From a virus (Duplodnaviria > Heunggongvirae > Uroviricota > Caudoviricetes): a stretch of 8,206 nt of DNA. Below are positions 1-8,206 of the stretch, in pieces. The stretch lies in IMG/VR virus record IMGVR_UViG_2690316131_000020. One strand, written 5' to 3'. Both the position numbers and the translations under genes were made by a program. The stretch's first letter is position 1. Every line of letters begins with the position of its first letter. Below the pieces are notes generated by a model, which ran no database searches, had not been told where the DNA came from, and worked only from the letters and a program-made list of their open reading frames with translations.

Positions 1-942
1 CTAAATAGGCTGATTCGATGTGTTTACGGGAAAAAAATCGGCCCAGATCCGCGAAATTTTAATCAGCGAGTCAGCTTGGGAAGAAATGACCTGCTTATTC
101 GCACCTTCCCTAACCGCTCCTGATTCGGTTTTTATTACCGCCTCATCAGTTGGAGTTATAACCGTGGCTTCAACGTTAATAATCAGCTTTTGAGCGTCTA
201 TCAGCATCATGCGATCCGCCTGTTCGCTCACAATTACCGGTATTCTCAAAAGCTCTATCTGCCAGAACTCAGCATTAGTAAGCTGTAAGGCGTTTTCTAC
301 GGGCAAGATTAGCGACGACGTGGCAAGCGTGTTACCGTTCGCTATGTGCTTTTTGAAAAGCTCTATGAAGTTTTCGGCCTCATCAGCACCATTAAGCACG
401 CCCTCAGGGGATACGCCCGCCAACTCCTGGTCACTGGAAAGAAATTTTTTATCTATTTCTTTCACCGATTCCGATGTGATCAAGTCTCTGATCGCTGAAT
501 TGGTACCAGGGGTGCTAAATTTGATTAGCTCGTTATTCAGCATCACAATAGCGCCGAGTTTGTACAGTTTTAGCGAGCTTTCGCTTACTTCTCCCCCTTT
601 TACTGGGATTTCTTCGGCCTCTTTAAGCCATTTACTCCCCTTGCCTGATATTGATTGCAATTTTGCGCCAAAGGGAAGATTAAGCGCACTACTGATTAAC
701 TTGCCAGGTACAGACTGCGAAAAAATATACCCGCCCAGCTCTCTTGCTATCGGCTCAGCCACCAGCGACGGAAGGTTATCCGTGTTCATTCCTGCTACTA
801 CGGATTTTTCAAGGAATAACGAGACAGCCGGATCATTTCTTTTCGTCATCTCTATAGCGTCAGCATGGCTAAATTTACACGATGCCAGCACGCTGGCGGC
901 GCGAACTGCTGACACGCCTTTCATGTTTTTACAGATCATCAT
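1..942 (-). CDS. Putative major capsid protein, HK97-like fold (313 aa); family assignment tentative
   Basis: Complete ORF with TAG stop at 1-3 and ATG at 940-942, preceded by a strong SD (AGGAGGAGGAAG directly upstream). It lies downstream of the terS-like gene. The segment KEIDKKFLSSDQELAGVSPEGVLNG resembles the conserved FL-GDG-G-P-G-L region of HK97-family capsid proteins, and size and composition fit. No Walker A motif, so TerL is unlikely. Confidence 0.5.
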   Translation of the reverse strand: MMICKNMKGVSAVRAASVLASCKFSHADAIEMTKRNDPAVSLFLEKSVVAGMNTDNLPSLVAEPIARELGGYIFSQSVPGKLISSALNLPFGAKLQSISGKGSKWLKEAEEIPVKGGEVSESSLKLYKLGAIVMLNNELIKFSTPGTNSAIRDLITSESVKEIDKKFLSSDQELAGVSPEGVLNGADEAENFIELFKKHIANGNTLATSSLILPVENALQLTNAEFWQIELLRIPVIVSEQADRMMLIDAQKLIINVEATVITPTDEAVIKTESGAVREGANKQVISSQADSLIKISRIWADFFPVNTSNQPI

Positions 943-1090
943 CTTCCTCCTCCTGGAAGCACGGTGTTAGTGTTTCGTGAAAATATGGCATCAGAATAGC
1001 GGCGGCCTGTAACCGTATTTCGGTCGGCTGCTGCTTGTCGTTCATGATTTCCGTTAGTACCTCGATCGGGTCTGTTATGTATTCGCTCAT
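929..1090 (-). CDS. Small hypothetical protein (53 aa, MSEYITDPIEVLTEIMNDKQQPTEIRLQAAAILMPYFHETLTPCFQEEEDDDL)
   Basis: Below the ORF-track length cutoff; found by manual translation. ATG at 1088-1090 with GAGG about 10 nt upstream, overlapping the TerS stop. Its stop overlaps the start of the capsid-like gene (ATGATGATCTGTAA), suggesting translational coupling. Acidic C-terminal tail. Confidence 0.3.
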   Translation of the reverse strand: MSEYITDPIEVLTEIMNDKQQPTEIRLQAAAILMPYFHETLTPCFQEEEDDDL

Positions 1091-1101: not shown

Positions 1102-1590
1102 TCAGTGTTTTAGGGCTGTTGGTGGCTTAGGGATGGGAAAGCGGTTTGATGAAACATTGGTAGCATTGAGTTTTTTTACCTCTTTTTTACCAATGCTGCT
1201 GATCTTGCGGTGGGTGAACTGGGCCAGCTTAAACGCGGCATCTAAAGCCAGTTTTGGATCTGTGTCCATGTTGTCAATCAGTATCCTGCCCATTGCTTTG
1301 ATGGGGTCGGGTAGGCCGTTATCCATCATCTCAATGGTGTTAATTGATGCCCGTTCCGGTGTAACTTTTTCGGTAACTTTCTTTGTAACTTTTTTCGGTT
1401 TTGTAACCTGAAAAGTTACATCAGAAGTTACAGCCTTAAGATACTTTTTCACCTCAGGATCATTGGATAGCTGCCAGCCTTTAACCCTTGCGGTCTTTTC
1501 GCTGTATCCCGCATGTATAGCGGCTTCCGTGGGATTTGCGCCCCTTGATAACGCATCAGCAAACCGCTTTTTTTTGGTCGTTAATGCCAT
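1102..1590 (-). CDS. Terminase small subunit homologue (162 aa)
   Basis: N-terminus MALTTKKKRFADALSRGANPTEAAIHAGYSEKTARVKGWQLSNDPEVKKYL matches the conserved HTH region of phage TerS proteins (KQ-F---Y--G-N-T-AAI-AGYS-KTA). ATG at 1588-1590 with GAGG 7 nt upstream. The longer track ORF (to 1728) would use GTG without an SD and overlap the upstream gene, so the ATG start is preferred. Confidence 0.7.
   Translation of the reverse strand: MALTTKKKRFADALSRGANPTEAAIHAGYSEKTARVKGWQLSNDPEVKKYLKAVTSDVTFQVTKPKKVTKKVTEKVTPERASINTIEMMDNGLPDPIKAMGRILIDNMDTDPKLALDAAFKLAQFTHRKISSIGKKEVKKLNATNVSSNRFPIPKPPTALKH
1361..1431. repeat. Cluster of GTAAC/GTTAC pentamer repeats inside the terS-like gene (4 direct plus 2 inverted copies); further copies upstream at 1613-1635
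   Basis: Plus-strand GTAAC at 1361, 1373, 1385 and 1403; GTTAC at 1415 and 1427. These encode the repeated KVT motif (VTFQVTKPKKVTKKVTEKVT) in TerS. Two more GTGTAACTTTT copies lie in the noncoding leader at 1613-1623 and 1625-1635. Confidence 0.55.
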
Positions 1591-1717
1591 GCAAAAACCT
1601 CGTTTTGAGGGGGTGTAACTTTTCGTGTAACTTTTTTGAAAAGCAAAATTTTCTACGAATGAGACGGGGGGCGGTGTCCAGGGCGATCGACTTTCCGGCC
1701 GGAACACTCCCCCCCTG

Positions 1718-1879
1718 TCATTGCTCACCGAGTAACGAGATCAGGCCTTCAACTTCATCACTCAGCTTGTTTATTCGTGTCTCAAGCTCTGCGATCTTTT
1801 CCATCAATGGCGCTATGGTGTCTCTTGTTTCCTCGCCAATGGCTTTAATGATGCTTGCCTCGCGTTCTGTGATAGCCAT
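1718..1879 (-). CDS. Small hypothetical protein (53 aa, MAITEREASIIKAIGEETRDTIAPLMEKIAELETRINKLSDEVEGLISLLGEQ), likely coiled-coil
   Basis: Below the ORF-track cutoff; found by manual translation. ATG at 1877-1879 with GAGG about 10 nt upstream. Tight junction with the upstream ORF stop (TAA ACA ATG). Heptad-like helical sequence. Confidence 0.4.
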   Translation of the reverse strand: MAITEREASIIKAIGEETRDTIAPLMEKIAELETRINKLSDEVEGLISLLGEQ

Positions 1880-2207: not shown

Positions 2208-2453
2208 TTATTCTCCAGCGCTTTTAACGTTGATGGTTGTTACCTGTTCCGCTTCGGCAATCTCCCGTTCTGTCAGCGTGGCAAAGTTTGCCGCCGCTGT
2301 GGTCATGAATGCGCTTATCAGTTCGGGATGCTCCTTCGCGTATCCTTCCCCCGCGTGGCGGTCTATCGTTCTGATTGCCACCTTTAAGGAAAGCTCTGTC
2401 ATGTCTAACGCTTTATATTTTGGCGCTGTCTTATCTCTGGTTTTTCTGTTCAT
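2208..2453 (-). CDS. Hypothetical protein (81 aa)
   Basis: ATG at 2451-2453 with GGGGAG/GGGGA SD-like sequence upstream (derived from the iteron sequence). Followed by a strong intrinsic terminator. No recognisable motif. Confidence 0.45.
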   Translation of the reverse strand: MNRKTRDKTAPKYKALDMTELSLKVAIRTIDRHAGEGYAKEHPELISAFMTTAAANFATLTEREIAEAEQVTTINVKSAGE

Positions 2454-2657
2454 TCCCCACTACTCCCCACTTTTGCTCCCCACTTTTTGAAATTACCCAC
2501 CGTCTCCCCACCTCTTTTTTTTGTGATTCTAACGTTATGTTTTTCAATATGTTTTTTACTCCCCACTTTTTTGGGTATATACAGGTGGGAAAGTGGGTAA
2601 TTATGTTTCAATTTTGTTAAATTCCCCACTCCCCCCACTTTTACTCCCCACTTTTTA
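2453..2657. repeat. Iteron array flanking an AT-rich stretch: candidate replication origin of the element
   Basis: About 9 direct copies of (T)CCCCAC(TTTT) (cores at 2455, 2465, 2477, 2495 degenerate, 2507, 2561, 2624, 2633, 2646) plus inverted copies at 2584-2597 (GGTGGGAAAGTGGG). They flank an AT-rich segment at about 2513-2557 that includes a T8 run. The array starts at the 3' end of the replication initiator gene, as in SaPI/PICI-type origins. Confidence 0.6.
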
Positions 2658-4055
2658 CAGCGGGCGCACGTCATCACCGTCAATAACGATTACGCCATCA
2701 TTTTCCAGCTTGTACAGCCAGCGCCGGAAGTGCTTCATCTCATACCCCAGCTTTTTCATATCGTCGCGGAGAAGGGCGATAGTGCACGCCTCCCCGTGTG
2801 CTGTTCGTGTTCTGATGCACTGCCATAGCGCGGCGTGATTCTCCGTCTTGTTCCCTGCCTCCTCGATGCGCTCCAGTTCAACGGGAGGGCGCGGCTTATC
2901 CACCACCACCAGCGACGTGATTAACTCCCCGTCAGCGTCGGTAAAAAGCTCCACCACGCGTAAGTCATATGCTGCTTCTTTGAGTTCCTCCGCGTCCTTC
3001 ATTTTGGTACATGAGATAACCAGCGCTTCGCTGCCTGCGTCCTCCCTGCGTATCCGGTATTCGGCGTCCAGTGATGCACGAAATGCACTGGAACCACGCG
3101 CCCCCTTTGTTTCATCCTTGCCGGAATGGTGAACCACCAGCACCGTTGCCCCTGTGCGCCGTTTCAGTTCGTCACACCCACGGATAAACGCCCCCATATC
3201 ACGGGAATCATTTTCATCATTGCCGCCAAAGCAGCGCGCCAGCGTATCCAGAATAATCATTCGAACCGGTTTACCCGTTTCCCGTTCCACCTGACGGGCA
3301 GCGATAACCATTTCCTCAACATCAAGCGGGGCAGCCGGAAAGATGGGACGGTTTACCAGATACAGATTTTTCACCTGCTCATCGTGCACAACCTCCCAGG
3401 CTTTTACACGACGCGGAACACCTATACCGCCTTCACCAACCACATAGAGAACCGCACCATGTGCAACCCTGCTGCCTCCCCACTGGCGACCAGTGGCAAC
3501 ATGGCACGCCCACGATCCGGCAAGGAATGATTTATAGGACCCGCTAGCCCCGTATATGCTGCATAGCGATACCGCCGGAATAATCCCCTTAACCACGTAA
3601 TCCAGTTGCGTGTCGTATCCGGTAGATCCAACGCTCATCGGTAGCGTGGTTTTTCGCTGGTGGTTTTTTTCTTCCGCCGGCTCTTTCCCGCGCACCCGTT
3701 CCAGGTATTCGCGCCAGTTCTCCCGCATATGGCTGTGCATCCCTTCGGGGTAATAATTCGCATCAGTTACACCCGCCGCCGCCAGCTTGTGCGCAATGGC
3801 ATTAATATTTGATGGCCTGATGTGGCCTGCCTTGTACAGCCGGACACAATAGCGCCCCTCGTCGATGATTCTCAGGTCTGCCAGTTCATCCAGTTGATCA
3901 TCAGCCAGCACAACGGGAGGCACATTATCGCCAGCCAGTCGCCCGTCCTGTTCCTGCCACTGTTTCGCATGTGCCCAGGCATCACTACCCGCAAAAATAA
4001 TGACTTCGGTCATCTTGTCGTAAGGCTGTTTTTTTAAGTTCGGTGCGCTTTTCAT
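2655..4055 (-). CDS. Replication initiator / helicase-like protein (466 aa): RecA-fold RepA-type (AAA_25-like) ATPase core, N-terminal domain of uncertain type, C-terminal winged-helix-like tail
   Basis: Walker A GASGSYKS, Walker B-like RMIILDTLARCF, and VLVVHHSGKD typical of RepA / DnaB-like loader ATPases. ATG at 4053-4055 with AGGGG SD (6 nt spacer). ATGA overlap with the upstream 99 aa ORF. The iteron origin follows immediately downstream. Confidence 0.85.
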   Translation of the reverse strand: MKSAPNLKKQPYDKMTEVIIFAGSDAWAHAKQWQEQDGRLAGDNVPPVVLADDQLDELADLRIIDEGRYCVRLYKAGHIRPSNINAIAHKLAAAGVTDANYYPEGMHSHMRENWREYLERVRGKEPAEEKNHQRKTTLPMSVGSTGYDTQLDYVVKGIIPAVSLCSIYGASGSYKSFLAGSWACHVATGRQWGGSRVAHGAVLYVVGEGGIGVPRRVKAWEVVHDEQVKNLYLVNRPIFPAAPLDVEEMVIAARQVERETGKPVRMIILDTLARCFGGNDENDSRDMGAFIRGCDELKRRTGATVLVVHHSGKDETKGARGSSAFRASLDAEYRIRREDAGSEALVISCTKMKDAEELKEAAYDLRVVELFTDADGELITSLVVVDKPRPPVELERIEEAGNKTENHAALWQCIRTRTAHGEACTIALLRDDMKKLGYEMKHFRRWLYKLENDGVIVIDGDDVRPL

Positions 4056-4814: not shown

Positions 4815-5028
4815 AACCCCCCCCATTTTCACAATCAGCAACAAGAATATTTTTAGCGTCATTCAGCGACCGCGTTGCGATGTATCGGATACATTCCAGG
4901 GCGAACGTTGTCCGGTCTTTCTGTTCTTCTCCCTGCGCAAGCTCTGCCGTGCATTCAATATCAATAAGCGCGTGCATCAGCGTAGTGAGCGCGGCGGCGG
5001 CTGCGTCCGGTGTGGTTTTATTGCACAT
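4807..5028 (-). CDS. Small hypothetical protein (73 aa, MCNKTTPDAAAAALTTLMHALIDIECTAELAQ...)
   Basis: ATG at 5026-5028 with a strong SD (AGGAGG, 6 nt spacer). Overlaps the 3' end of the upstream small ORF by 11 nt. Confidence 0.5.
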   Translation of the reverse strand: MCNKTTPDAAAAALTTLMHALIDIECTAELAQGEEQKDRTTFALECIRYIATRSLNDAKNILVADCENGGGYA

Positions 5029-5209
5029 GGCACACCTCCTGACGAATACGGGCGGCGAATACAGCAACACAACCGGACGGGCAACGGCTACGTGCTTCGC
5101 GTTCCGTCCAGGCGGTTACGTGGATGATTTGATGTTCTGACGCGCCAAAGATGATAAAGCGCCAGAGAAAGGCGGTTTGAGAATGTACAAGGGTAGGGAT
5201 AGTAGCCAT
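5018..5209 (-). CDS. Small protein, copy A of a tandem paralogous pair (63 aa, MATIPTLVHSQTAFLWRFIIFGASEHQIIHVTAWTE...)
   Basis: ATG at 5207-5209 with a strong SD (AGGAGG, 8 nt spacer). The N-terminal 15-20 codons are paralogous to the ORF starting at 5578, with differences mostly at third codon positions. It is the 3' part of the long 409-codon track ORF. Confidence 0.55.
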   Translation of the reverse strand: MATIPTLVHSQTAFLWRFIIFGASEHQIIHVTAWTEREARSRCPSGCVAVFAARIRQEVCHVQ

Positions 5210-5369
5210 GTTGGCAGCCTCCTCAGTGTGGTTAAGATAACCGCCACCGGAAACGCCAATTTCGCTGGTGGCGGACTGTACAGGGTTGGCGTAACCGGAC
5301 ACTGAAGAAACCGGCGCGGATTGCTCCGCCCCCGTACAGCCCACCATTGATAAGGTGTGACTATGCGGC

Positions 5370-5395
5370 ACAAAAAAACACGCGGGGCGCGTGTT
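5370..5395 (-). terminator. Intrinsic terminator-like hairpin plus U7 (minus strand), inside the stop-free frame between copies B and A
   Basis: On the minus strand: stem ACACGCG / CGCGUGU with loop CCC, followed by 7 U (the complement of the plus-strand A7 at 5372-5378). Confidence 0.4.
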
Positions 5396-5578
5396 ATGCG
5401 CTTCAGTTTTGCCCAGGACGCCAATCCCGGCACCCGTTTTATGAGGTGCGCGGGAATCATAGCTATTTTCGACACTGGCGATCAACTGGTTTTTTTCTCC
5501 GATATTCAGGGCCAGAAAACGCCACACAAAGGCCGTTTGTGTGTGTACAAGGTGTGGTATATGATTTACGGCAACCAT
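5396..5578 (-). other. Copy B of the tandem paralogous leader ORF (MVAVNHIPHLVHTQTAFVWRFLALNIGEKNQLIASVEN...); no in-frame stop before copy A
   Basis: ATG at 5576-5578 with AGGAG SD (5 nt spacer). Paralogous to copy A. The frame stays open through a terminator-like hairpin into copy A, so its real 3' end and coding status are unresolved. Confidence 0.3.
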
Positions 5579-5666
5579 AACGGCTCCTAGTTTACGTTGT
5601 TGGTTAGACGCCCCGTATGTGTTCCCAGCACTGCGGGGCGTTGATTTTTGTGTAATGGCAAGTACA

Positions 5667-5711
5667 ATGGTAATTACCATGTAGGTATAGTAATGAAGGG
5701 TAATTACCATG
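5667..5711. promoter_or_regulatory. Two palindromic operator-like sites in the divergent control region: ATGGTAATTACCAT (5667-5680, perfect 14 bp palindrome) and AGGGTAATTACCAT (5697-5710), with a -10-like TATAGT at 5686-5691
   Basis: The perfect palindrome is repeated 30 bp downstream, where it overlaps the start codon of the Arc-like gene. An AAGGG SD lies 8 nt before that ATG. The sites sit between the plus-strand RHH gene and the minus-strand leader ORFs. Confidence 0.5.
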
Positions 5712-5882
5712 TCAACACCATTAGAAAAACGTTCGCCTCCATACCAAATGCGATTACCGGAAGACTTCAGAGCGCAGCTAGAAGAAGCAGCTAAGGCCGA
5801 TGGCGACACATCTTTAGCCACTTGGATTAAACGCGTTCTCCGCAAAGAATTACAGCAACGCGGCATAGAACCCAAAGGATAA
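5709..5882 (+). CDS. Arc/MetJ-type ribbon-helix-helix DNA-binding protein (57 aa), candidate repressor
   Basis: Below the ORF-track cutoff; found by manual translation: MSTPLEKRSPPYQMRLPEDFRAQLEEAAKADGDTSLATWIKRVLRKELQQRGIEPKG. The RLPE-D/E-L...EAA...G-x-T/S...I...L pattern is typical of Arc-like RHH domains. An in-frame stop lies just upstream at 5694, and the palindromic operators overlap its promoter and start. Confidence 0.7.
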   Translation: MSTPLEKRSPPYQMRLPEDFRAQLEEAAKADGDTSLATWIKRVLRKELQQRGIEPKG

Positions 5883-5924
5883 AAACTATCAGCGCCGTGG
5901 TGTGAGGTATTACGGCGCATTGCT

Positions 5925-6113
5925 ATGCAGGACAACACAATGACCGATAAAGAATTGACCAAAACATTATCACCGGCACGGAAAAGACGGCGCAGAAAGA
6001 TAGAGCATGAATCAGAAAGATTCGCGCCATGTGCTTTTGCCCTTGAGCAATTCCTTAAAGAGTACAGGGAAAAGCGCTCATTGCAGGTATGGCAACGAAC
6101 TGAACCAGACTGA
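5925..6113 (+). CDS. Hypothetical small basic protein (62 aa); weak call
   Basis: ATG ORF downstream of the Arc-like gene and upstream of the terminator at 6209-6235, but with no convincing SD. The antisense frame is part of the rejected 409-codon ORF. Confidence 0.25.
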   Translation: MQDNTMTDKELTKTLSPARKRRRRKIEHESERFAPCAFALEQFLKEYREKRSLQVWQRTEPD

Positions 6114-6208
6114 TTGCATTGCCCACCAGCCTGATAGCGGCTATCATCCCCGTGCTTATGTTTGGGATCACATACACATAAGGCGCAGCGGGTTAATTGT
6201 TCAGAAAG

Positions 6209-6235
6209 GCGGCTCCATATCGGGGCCGCTTTTTT
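6209..6235. terminator. Intrinsic terminator, probably bidirectional, between the convergent plus-strand RHH operon and minus-strand alpA
   Basis: Stem GCGGCUCC / GGGGCCGC (8 bp with one G-U pair), loop AUAUC, then T6 on the plus strand. On the minus strand the same hairpin is followed by CUUUCU. It lies about 30 nt downstream of the alpA stop. Confidence 0.6.
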
Positions 6236-6261
6236 CGTGTTTGTCATATCTGTGATACCCG

Positions 6262-6468
6262 TTAAGCAGCCGTTCCGCGTGCTTCCTCTTCGCGTTCTTT
6301 CTGCCAGGACAACACATCATCCTCATACCATCCGCGACGGCGTAAACCAACGCGAAAACCCTGCGGAAATTCTCCGGCGTTGATCATGCTTTGCAGCGTG
6401 CTGTCTGCCTTGATGTGGATAATTTTTTTTACTTCCTGGCGAAAGATAATTTTTCTGATTGCTTCCAT
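6262..6468 (-). CDS. alpA: AlpA-family phage transcriptional regulator / excisionase-like HTH protein (68 aa)
   Basis: Motif ...FRQEVKKIIHIKADSTLQSMINAGEFPQGFRVGLRRRGWYEDDVLSWQ matches the AlpA family signature (G-K/E-FP...R..GW.E.D...W). ATG at 6466-6468 with AAGGT SD. Positioned two genes from a P4-type integrase. Confidence 0.85.
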   Translation of the reverse strand: MEAIRKIIFRQEVKKIIHIKADSTLQSMINAGEFPQGFRVGLRRRGWYEDDVLSWQKEREEEARGTAA

Positions 6469-6964: not shown

Positions 6965-8206
6965 CTACACGGCTCGGATACCCCTTTTACCACTGGCGAG
7001 GGTTACGCCCGTCGCCGCAGCCTCGACAAATTCGCCCCACCAGCGCATCAGCACGATGCGTTTTTCTATGTAGTTGCTCCGGTTGTATGCCCGTCTAACT
7101 TCGTTGGTGTCGACGTGGGCAAGTGCCGCCTCTATTACGTCCGGCTCGAATCCTTCCTCGTTCGCTGCTGTGCTGAATATGGCGCGTAATCCATGAGACA
7201 CCAGCACGCCAGCGAATCCCATACGCCGCAATGCTGCGTTAGCTGTCTGGCTGTTCATCGGCTGCTGTGGGTCTTTCAGACTTGGGAAAACGTAATTGCG
7301 GTGGTGGCTGATTGGTTTCATGGCCTCCAGCACCGCCATAGCCTGACCGGAAAGCGGGATAACGTGATCCCTGCGCATCTTCATGCGTCCGGCAGGTATC
7401 GTCCATTGCTTCGCGTCCAGGTTGATTTCATCCCACCGCGTTGATGACGCTTCGGCGGGACGGGTTACGGTCAGTAACTGCCATTCAATCAGTAATCTGG
7501 TCTGCCGTTCTGTTGCCGATACTGATAAAGCCTGCATAAGCTCGGGCAGCTGTTCGGGGCGGATTGTTGGCATATGTTTTTTTACAGGTGAGGGAAACGC
7601 CTTACGCACATTCATAGCCGGATTGGCATCAATCAGCCCACTGTTGGCGGCGTAATCCATTACCTCATTAACGCGCTGTAAAACCCGCTTGAGTGTTTCC
7701 AGGTTGCCGCGCTCCTTGATGGGGGTAAGCACTTCAACGAACCTTCGGGCGGTGAGGGTATCTATTGGCGTGTTGCCGATGAACGGGAATACATATTTAT
7801 CCAGCGAACGCCAGATGTCTTTAATCGTGTTGGGGGCCAGATTCTGGCTGATTTTCACCTGGTACCATGCCGCCGCCACATTTTCGAACGTGTTCCCTTG
7901 TCTTCGGGCCTCTGTCTCTCTTTTTTGCCTCTCGTGGTCCTGCGGGTCAGTTCCGGCACTGATTAACGTCCTGTACTCGCTACGGCGTTTTCTGGCATCA
8001 GCCAGGGAAACATCTTCAAGCGATCCAAAACTCAGCAATATTCTTTTTTTGTCCGATGGTCGGTAGTAGGAAAATCTCCAGAGTTTTGATCCAGACGGTT
8101 TGACCAGGAGAAAAAGCCCTCCGCCGTCCTGCAGGGTGTACTCCTTTTGCGCTGGTCTGGCTGCTTTGATCTGCACTGTGGTTAATGGGTGTGTTTTTCT
8201 CGCCAT
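6965..8206 (-). CDS. int: Tyrosine recombinase / integrase, P4-like family (413 aa)
   Basis: N-terminal arm-binding-type region (TLQDGGGLFLLVKPSGSKLWRFSYY). C-terminal catalytic motifs HGLRA and LAHVDTNEVRRAYNRSNY (H-x-x-R and catalytic Tyr). ATG at 8204-8206 is the last triplet of the window, so its upstream signals are not visible and a longer N-terminus cannot be excluded. Confidence 0.9.
   Translation of the reverse strand: MARKTHPLTTVQIKAARPAQKEYTLQDGGGLFLLVKPSGSKLWRFSYYRPSDKKRILLSFGSLEDVSLADARKRRSEYRTLISAGTDPQDHERQKRETEARRQGNTFENVAAAWYQVKISQNLAPNTIKDIWRSLDKYVFPFIGNTPIDTLTARRFVEVLTPIKERGNLETLKRVLQRVNEVMDYAANSGLIDANPAMNVRKAFPSPVKKHMPTIRPEQLPELMQALSVSATERQTRLLIEWQLLTVTRPAEASSTRWDEINLDAKQWTIPAGRMKMRRDHVIPLSGQAMAVLEAMKPISHHRNYVFPSLKDPQQPMNSQTANAALRRMGFAGVLVSHGLRAIFSTAANEEGFEPDVIEAALAHVDTNEVRRAYNRSNYIEKRIVLMRWWGEFVEAAATGVTLASGKRGIRAV

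Follow-up and report, generated by a model that had tools for sequence, protein, structure and literature searches.

AAGTTAC repeats in and upstream of a terS-like gene as probable terminase recognition sites of a cos-type packaging region in an Escherichia coli phage-inducible chromosomal island

The viral record IMGVR_UViG_2690316131_000020 (8,206 nucleotides (nt); the window, below) reads, by its gene layout, as a Gram-negative phage-inducible chromosomal island (PICI) of Escherichia coli. Its minus strand carries a terS-like gene of 162 codons (1102–1590), which matches Pfam Terminase_2 and is named a terminase small subunit in RefSeq, and repeats of the type AAGTTAC are clustered in this gene and in its non-coding leader. 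With a probability of roughly 65%, these repeats are recognition elements for the small terminase (TerS), equivalent to the R sites of a cosB, in a two-part cohesive-end (cos) site that belongs to the satellite itself and depends on the HNH nuclease of a helper phage. An earlier note on this DNA had likened them to packaging sites within terS in pac-type phages and the Staphylococcus aureus pathogenicity islands (SaPIs). That pac-type, headful framing is not supported, and a cosB-like part of a cos site is preferred, because the related phages have the gene order HNH-TerS-TerL (large terminase) and because the published 10-nt 3′ cohesive end of one of them aligns with a conserved island block that stands 31–49 bp upstream of the leader copies.

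Eight copies of GTAAC/GTTAC form a genuine cluster in the terS-like gene and its leader, as the earlier note had proposed. The pentamer GTAAC occurs 22 times on the two strands of the window, against 12.1 expected. The clustered copies start at 1361, 1373, 1385 and 1403 (+), 1415 and 1427 (−), and 1615 and 1627 (+), six of them in terS and two in the leader, and neither six copies in 75 base pairs (bp) nor eight in 275 bp arose in any of 2000 simulations of the window under a first-order Markov model. The longer core AAGTTAC is found eight times in the window against 0.73 expected (0/200 shuffles), with seven of the eight inside 1361–1633; the remaining site of the cluster is AGGTTAC (1403–1409).

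The six intragenic sites make up a distal array (1361–1431) with both orientations and with start-to-start spacings of 12, 12, 18, 12 and 12 bp. AAGTTAC or AGGTTAC is read on the minus (coding) strand at 1361–1367, 1373–1379, 1385–1391 and 1403–1409, and reversed sites lie at 1413–1419 and 1425–1431. In coding-strand order, two reversed copies (GTA-ACT-TCT and GTA-ACT-TTT) are followed by four forward copies (CAG-GTT-ACA, AAA-GTT-ACA, AAA-GTT-ACC and AAA-GTT-ACA), and the first two oppose in DNA orientation both the other four and the leader copies. The encoded peptides are A-VT-S, D-VT-F, Q-VT-K, K-VT-K, K-VT-E and K-VT-P; each of the six copies specifies a V-T dipeptide, and only three specify the K-V-T motif that had been ascribed to all of them. 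The proximal pair in the leader, AAAAAAGTTACAC and GAAAAGTTACAC (1613–1637, minus strand), is likewise spaced at 12 bp and stands 23–47 nt upstream of the terS start codon, confirming the original estimate of about 25–45 bp; each homologous lineage with an available leader has at least one copy at the same place. A ribosome-binding site, ACGAGG (GAGG), is read at about 1598–1603 on the minus strand, and the start codon is the ATG at 1590, which is also the annotated start of the RefSeq orthologue.

Conservation of the repeats is found at the level of nucleotides. A protein search yielded 13 relatives of the TerS, and DNA was recovered for seven lineages with 55–62% protein identity: two E. coli satellite types, a Hafnia alvei prophage, a phage-like TerS-TerL contig, a Salmonella element, and two metagenomic elements. 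These seven, some of them from short contigs, constitute the GTTAC clade. The 11-mer AAAAGTTACAC is present in the non-coding leader, before the ribosome-binding site, in each lineage with an available leader, most often as a single copy. Across nine genes from the seven lineages, the valine codon of the V-T dipeptides is GTA or GTT in 36 of 36 cases, whereas GTC or GTG accounts for 14 of the 34 valine codons elsewhere in these genes. Threonine in V-T is encoded by ACA (rarely ACC) in forward copies and by ACT in reverse copies. This pattern, GTA-ACT in reverse and GTT-ACA/C forward, is the one expected of AAGTTAC(A) as a single word with an orientation. Outside the motif, third positions with fourfold or sixfold degeneracy are near saturation where the amino acid is invariant, with 14–52% pairwise identity (two exceptions at 0.71), whereas the three motif columns common to all seven lineages in the codon alignment score 1.00, 1.00 and 0.71. 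Because the V-T codons are fixed while other synonymous sites are saturated, selection on the repeats acts on the nucleotide sequence and not on the peptide. The occurrence of the same extended word in both orientations is as expected of a site on double-stranded DNA. The proposal that coding and non-coding DNA of a packaging region share an element recognized at the nucleotide level is supported: homologues at 55–62% identity that encode the repeat with other codons and lack upstream copies were sought, and all homologues in that range have GTW-ACN, with an upstream copy wherever the leader is available.

The number of GTTAC-type sites varies among lineages. The window has 8 and L082, the second E. 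coli satellite type (TerS 62% identical), has 10, with six GTTAC/GTAAC copies and one GTTAAC in a longer leader; L086, L088 and L173 have 4–6, and two phage-like loci have 4–5. A rule that satellites always carry more sites than phages was considered and dropped as inconsistent, since the counts of L086, L088 and L173 overlap those of the phage-like loci. Scans of genome contigs and metagenomes gave no further GTTAC-clade lineages; they returned mostly unrelated phages that match the N-terminal domain only, near-identical copies, and members of GTTAAC clades. A scan of viral contigs gave four near-identical copies and L096, a member of a different clade described below. In L086 (1532–7993) and L088 (2187–5341), a satellite-type terS and a capsid-like module stand directly before large-terminase, protease-capsid or portal genes, and these two loci may be satellites embedded in the late regions of helper prophages.

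The leader copies lie beside a cos-like core. The Hafnia relative (TerS 57% identical) is a genuine prophage whose genes include those for lysis, HNH, TerS, TerL, a protease-capsid fusion, and a portal. Among phage records, tblastn detected a TerS with 46% identity in 116 entries, mostly Shiga toxin (Stx) phages of types Stx1a, Stx2c and Stx2a; these include BP-4795, 2851, 1717 and Lys8385Vzw and have the same HNH-TerS-TerL order. A block between HNH and TerS-TerL is conserved in the Hafnia prophage (L084/L085) and the Stx phages (L091/L090). In the window and in all these phage relatives, the non-coding block upstream of terS comprises a G-run and, about 35 nt further on, GGACAC followed by a variable 10-mer and CTCACGC-AGAAAAAA; in the window it lies 59–127 nt upstream of terS. 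The Stx1 phage Lys8385Vzw is a cos phage with 10-nt 3′ cohesive ends of the sequence CGCCCCCCCT (PMC7946995), and its record ends in ...GGACACCGCCCCCCCT and starts with CTCACGCAGAGAAAAAA, exactly at the conserved block. The 10-mer of the window (1664–1673; CGCCCCCCGT on the minus strand, flanked by GGACAC and CTCA) equals this cohesive end with one mismatch and is, by homology to Lys8385Vzw, the putative cohesive-end sequence of the island. Alignment to Lys8385Vzw and the other relatives places it within a cosN-like core, GGACAC-CGCCCCCCGT-CTCATTCGTAGAAAA, at 1649–1679 (minus strand).

Counted from the base after the 10-mer, which is taken as the predicted cut, the AAGTTAC cores of the leader occupy +31 to +49, terS starts at +74, and the intragenic array covers about +233 to +303. 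All relatives retain the G-run CAGGGGGGGAG (1707–1717, minus strand). It and the C-run of the cos 10-mer make up an imperfect inverted repeat (GGGGGGAGTGT / ACACCGCCCCCC, span 1664–1717), and the G-run is possibly a cosQ-like or nuclease-positioning element. The minus-strand order is the G-run, GGACAC, CGCCCCCCGT, CTCATTCGTAGAAAA, two AAAAGTTACAC sites, the ribosome-binding site, the terS start, about 160 bp of coding sequence, and the distal six-site array. Two side observations concern the far flank of this region. An open reading frame (ORF) for a 53-residue predicted coiled coil (1718–1879, minus strand) ends exactly at the G-run, and its C-terminal ...EVEGLISLLGE is kept upstream of cos in L086 and L088. 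In L082 (5348–5836), a gene with a weak HNH match lies immediately upstream of the cos region.

The repeat word co-varies with the TerS clade. In the Stx-phage clade, the leader of 230 nt contains five copies of (A)TGTTAAC, and there are neither GTTAC sites nor a V-T linker. L096 (45% identical), of a third clade, carries two copies of GTTAACCC in its leader, and this leader and the linker-coding region have in common the 10-mer GTTAACCCTG, translated in the latter as V-N. In a fourth, Citrobacter-type clade (eight loci, about 30% identical), GTTAACGTGTTAAC spans the start codon, and six of the eight loci have GTTAAC in the linker-coding region, again translated as V-N; the surrounding peptide is also conserved there, hence this evidence is weaker. 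Between the 7 lineages of the GTTAC clade and the GTTAAC clades, which are the Stx phages, L096, and the L002/L006/L195 group, the cosN flanks are conserved and the repeat word differs. The cos core is thus constant across clades, and where the repeat word changes the linker dipeptide changes along with it. The constancy of cosN, set beside a word that varies with the TerS clade, points to TerS as the reader of the sites, and the same pattern distinguishes cosB specificities among lambda-like phages. On the question whether helper phage terS genes carry the same motif, the answer is yes for the Hafnia prophage and the phage-like contig, in both leader and gene, and no for the Stx-type phages of E. 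coli, which carry GTTAAC. Residue 39 of TerS (codon 1474–1476, in the third helix) is W, C or Y in all TerS of the GTTAC clade and S in all GTTAAC-clade TerS seen; it is a candidate specificity determinant, offered as a lead only.

The intragenic sites are written into the codons of a poorly conserved part of TerS. The match to Terminase_2 (PF03592; E 1.2e-10, 42.6 bits, over the gathering cut-off of 26.1) is confined to residues 3–57 (profile positions 1–55 of 141), the C-terminal part is common only to the enterobacterial clades, and weak matches to the SF6 chains 2CMP, 3ZQP and 4ZC3 were seen. An AlphaFold2 model with a 14-sequence alignment as input gives a confident four-helix N-terminal domain (residues 5–56, predicted local distance difference test (pLDDT) 81–89), a stretch predicted to be disordered (residues 57–84, pLDDT <50), and a helical C-terminal part. 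The V-T repeats encoded by the array, within residues 54–77, lie almost wholly inside this low-confidence linker, which is where homologues carry insertions and deletions. Identity to the Stx-phage TerS is 60% in the N-terminal domain, 19% in the linker, and 55% in the C-terminal part, making the linker the least conserved portion. Close alleles differ by whole 12-nt units with the remaining sites intact; L175 has exactly 24 nt fewer and retains four intact sites. The linker would appear to tolerate almost any sequence, and the V-T peptide is probably a translated by-product of the DNA sites.

These data suggest a mechanism in which the binding protein, the geometry, the identity of the helper, and the effect on packaging are the elements that we infer. 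The helix-turn-helix domains of an island TerS oligomer would bind the AAGTTAC sites. The 12-bp phasing and the A-tract before each site would set successive subunits of the ring on successive sites of bent DNA, and a DNA wrap or loop of about 200 bp would link the proximal cluster to the distal one. The TerS C-terminal half, which is conserved with the helper TerS, might then recruit the large terminase and HNH nuclease of the helper, which would cut at the conserved cosN so that the island is packaged. Resident helpers of the Stx type would read GTTAAC with their own TerS, leaving the GTTAC sites, different by one base, private to the island. The leader sites could have a secondary role in TerS autoregulation.

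Several points weigh against the repeats being TerS sites of a cos region. The assignment of TerS as the binding protein is indirect, and small terminases are often weakly sequence-specific in vitro. The cos assignment leans on similarity to a phage with just 46% identity in TerS and on the end determination in the paper describing that phage, and the island 10-mer and flank differ from Lys8385Vzw by a few bases. At 233–303 bp off the predicted cut, the distal array is farther away than R1 of lambda (Nu1 starts at bp 191) and far beyond the single site of HK97; the Stx-phage clade has no intragenic copy, and a distal site is thus not obligatory in the family. The inverted copies are also able to fold into a hairpin, as RNA or as a single strand. 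Finally, the seven lineages share ancestry and the codon counts are not fully independent. Despite this shared ancestry, the contrast between the motif codons and the rest of the same gene is clear.

Four other explanations were weighed. It is unlikely that the repeats are mainly an operator through which TerS, or a regulator of the island or helper, represses or times the terS-capsid operon. The leader copies do lie just upstream of the ribosome-binding site, copies in both orientations about 200 bp apart are reminiscent of looping operators, and the pac of SPP1 overlaps the gene 1 promoters and ribosome-binding site, with the title of one reference stating that the terminase represses its own synthesis. 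However, a scan of 1000–2700 found no sigma-70-like promoter (a phage-type late promoter may be present), the phage relatives have these sites between HNH and terS, right next to the cos core, and the motif co-varies with the TerS clade with no regulator gene linked across lineages. Autoregulation is plausible as a secondary function compatible with TerS recognition, which is the most that survives of the operator suggested in the earlier note. An RNA-level element is a weaker candidate again; here a hairpin in the terS mRNA, or pairing of the leader with the reversed copies over 175 nt, would control translation or mRNA stability. The arms 1411–1435 and 1611–1635 are 84% complementary over 25 nt, local inverted repeats occur within 1354–1432, and the minimum-free-energy fold has a hairpin across the array (z = −2.0 against shuffles), but the consensus fold of the seven lineages is weak (−6.2 kcal/mol, with an unfavorable covariation term). 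Compensatory change is seen in 0 of 14 consensus pairs, only invariant motif letters pair, and the spacers vary without keeping complementarity, which indicates conservation of sequence and not of pairing. A single leader copy in most lineages, and arrangements of the palindrome GTTAAC in the sister clades that do not recreate the hairpin, further disfavor RNA structure.

The least probable explanation is one of protein alone, in which a flexible K-V-T-rich linker grew by slippage of a 12-nt unit and the leader copies and codons are inherited accidents. Lysine- and threonine-rich linkers are common, the array is a 12-nt tandem repeat, and alleles differ by whole units. Slippage, however, cannot give opposite orientations or non-coding copies, and it does not account for lineages that agree in these synonymous choices although their remaining synonymous sites are saturated. 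Sister clades with another leader word have the matching other dipeptide (V-N) or no repeat, and the linker is otherwise the part of TerS least conserved relative to the Stx phages, at 19% identity. Binding by a different factor, such as a replication initiator, a host nucleoid protein, or the HNH or large terminase of the helper, is very improbable as well. Phased A-tract repeats are typical of origins and nucleoid-protein sites, and TerS is here the presumed binding protein. On the other side, separate iterons, CTCCCCACTTTT, stand at 2444–2656 directly after rep, where such islands place their origin (PMC6092414), and the motif travels with terS across replication modules as different as the AAA_25 rep of the window, a primase-family protein in L001, and unrelated genes in the prophages. 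The cos core, which a nuclease would be expected to target, is shared between clades, and it is the repeats that vary with the TerS clade. The AAGTTAC repeats were ruled out as replication iterons, the word beside rep being a different one.

TerS recognition of a cosB-like array thus accounts best for the repeats, and a wider reading can tentatively be built on it, although this combination of claims may well fail in one part or another. The island might be a cos-type satellite of HNH-dependent, Stx-type phages with its own TerS paralogue, in which most recognition sites are written into the codons of a disordered linker and V-T (V-N in sister clades) is a translated packaging signal. Proximal and distal clusters about 200 bp apart would wrap one TerS ring, and the number of sites (4 to 10 in the lineages seen) would shift by gain or loss of 12-nt units, perhaps tuning competition with the helper. 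On this reading, Shiga toxin phages in O157:H7 and other Shiga toxin-producing E. coli could mobilize the island, through the one-base change from GTTAAC to GTTAC.

The searchable literature contains no account of this motif or of packaging by TerS-encoding Gram-negative PICIs. Three types of PICI packaging are found there, namely a copied helper cos, Rpp, and a pac-type TerS; an island of the cos type that has its own TerS together with private cosB repeats would add a fourth. Synonymous recoding can remove the sites and leave the protein unchanged, and GTTAC/GTTAAC would be a one-base specificity switch, providing a handle on how small terminases of the helix-turn-helix type read DNA, a topic that a recent review calls elusive and controversial. 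Should TerS bind as proposed, the repeats would also be a clear case of a protein-binding DNA signal that dictates a peptide repeat in an overlapping reading frame.

The remaining gene content agrees with a PICI. The window has an integrase (6965–8206, minus strand; Pfam and ORF list), an alpA-type regulator (6262–6468, minus strand; a weak Pfam match to AlpA under the cut-off), and a replication gene, rep, for an AAA_25 protein (2655–4055, minus strand; Pfam) followed by an ori-like region. Genes run in one orientation, as in PICIs, which also lack tail and lysis genes and use a specific attachment (att) site, and three small ORFs are also found on the minus strand. The ori-like iterons directly downstream of rep (2444–2656, minus strand) comprise several copies of CTCCCCAC(T)TTTT in repeat families of 18–45 nt and are probably the replication origin of the island. 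Two Rfam matches exceed the gathering score, C4 antisense RNA at 5264–5351 (−; 77.6 bits) and isrK at 5373–5449 (−; 66 bits); the listed ORF of 409 codons at 5018–6247 (−) overlaps both and is probably no gene. Neither HNH nor TerL genes were found in the window by ORF list and Pfam.

Downstream of terS are a small ORF (53 codons, 929–1090, minus strand; ORF list) and a gene for a 313-residue capsid-protein homologue (1–942, minus strand; Pfam, RefSeq and comparison), which belongs to the same packaging/interference module as terS. The capsid homologue is 24% identical to the capsid part of a 645-residue protease-capsid fusion of Stx phages and may act like Ccm of SaPIbov5, in capsid-size redirection or interference. 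An ORF of about 50 codons after terS recurs in L087 (1701–1856), L088 (2651–2803), L173 (552–704) and L172 (533–682); it is found in satellites and in one phage-like contig, where it stands between TerS and TerL, and is without a family match. An identity of the terS-like protein with Rpp of EcCICFT073-type islands was ruled out by its Terminase_2 match and by the lack of an Rpp match in the PDB; a sequence search of all PDB chains returned no Rpp by name (best E = 0.02), in a searched set that may not include the Rpp crystal structures. A capsid-forming PICI, considered in view of the capsid gene, was ruled out by a size of about 9 kb and by the lack of TerL, portal, protease and HNH.

An orthologous island in E. 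coli O157:H7 strain NE 1092-2, with 98% identity over 1000–2100, lies between tRNA-Pro/yejM and yejO. It is about 9 kb long, a size that compares with the roughly 9–15 kb expected of PICIs, and large terminase, portal, tail and lysis genes are absent from it. Of 5426 complete E. coli genomes, 220 (about 4%) contain the terS region, on the chromosome in every case, and carriers include O157:H7, O26 and O111 strains. Carrier genomes have up to four further partial matches to the terS/cos query, including prophage-type cos regions. The presence of a terS homologue in some Gram-negative PICIs was noted in a 2018 survey, which characterized only EcCICFT073 and PmCI172 (PMC6092414), and no experimental report on the present island was found in the searchable literature.

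Among satellites, the closest parallels are the EcCICFT073-type PICIs with Rpp, which are likewise E. coli islands with a helper-like cosN and their own cosB read by an island protein, so that packaging is redirected. Rpp, however, is a MerR/Nu1-like winged helix that pairs with a lambda-type TerS, whereas the protein here is a full paralogue of the helper TerS and the helper would be of the HNH cos phage type; no repeated R sequences have been reported in the cosB of Rpp islands. SaPIs that encode a TerS (TerS-S, with a SaPI-specific pac) share with the present island a satellite TerS homologue that gives private packaging specificity, and cos SaPIs such as SaPIbov5 with Ccm share a satellite-encoded capsid homologue. 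TerS-encoding SaPIs are pac-type and the known cos SaPIs carry the helper cos and no TerS, whereas the island has both its own TerS and a cos-type site.

Lambda TerS binds R sites beside cosN. The lambda cos (cosN plus R3, R2 and R1 of cosB, read by the helix-turn-helix of gpNu1) resembles the island in having short repeated sites in both orientations on the terS side of the nick, with the first site a few tens of bp from the cut (R3 at bp 50–65; +31 to +49 in the island) and with a site sequence that shifts with TerS specificity while cosN is conserved. The two differ in TerS family (Phage_Nu1 in lambda, Terminase_2 in the island) and in overhang (12 nt, 5′ in lambda; 10 nt, 3′ with an HNH partner in the island type). 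No IHF site was recognized in the island. In lambda every R site precedes Nu1 (start at bp 191); of the eight island sites, six are inside the gene.

In SPP1, gp1 binds pacL and pacR, and pac overlaps the promoter, ribosome-binding site and 5′ part of gene 1. The SPP1/SF6 system (pacL-pacC-pacR) thus shares with the island the Pfam family of the DNA-binding domain and a two-part recognition region that overlaps the ribosome-binding site and the TerS coding sequence. SPP1, however, is a headful packager that cuts between its two binding regions, whereas both island clusters lie on one side of a cos-type cut, and the intragenic part of the island array falls in the linker-coding region and not in the region that encodes the DNA-binding domain. 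Recognition sequence inside terS, as in a pac site, is indeed found (six of the eight sites, codons 54–77), but headful packaging without fixed ends or HNH does not fit relatives that have HNH, one of them with 10-nt 3′ ends, or the homologous cos core of the island.

HK97 is closest in its HNH-TerS-TerL order, shared with the phage relatives of the island, its 10-nt 3′ overhang, and its A-tract TerS site just downstream of the cut. HK97 TerS is not known to have a Terminase_2-type N-terminal helix-turn-helix domain. It binds one 15-bp A-tract site at +15 to +29 from the cut through a different substructure, and unlike the island HK97 has neither repeats nor intragenic sites. Compared with lambda, SPP1 and HK97 alike, the island stands apart in a two-part array that lies mostly in linker-coding terS and in a satellite that supplies the TerS but no nucleases.

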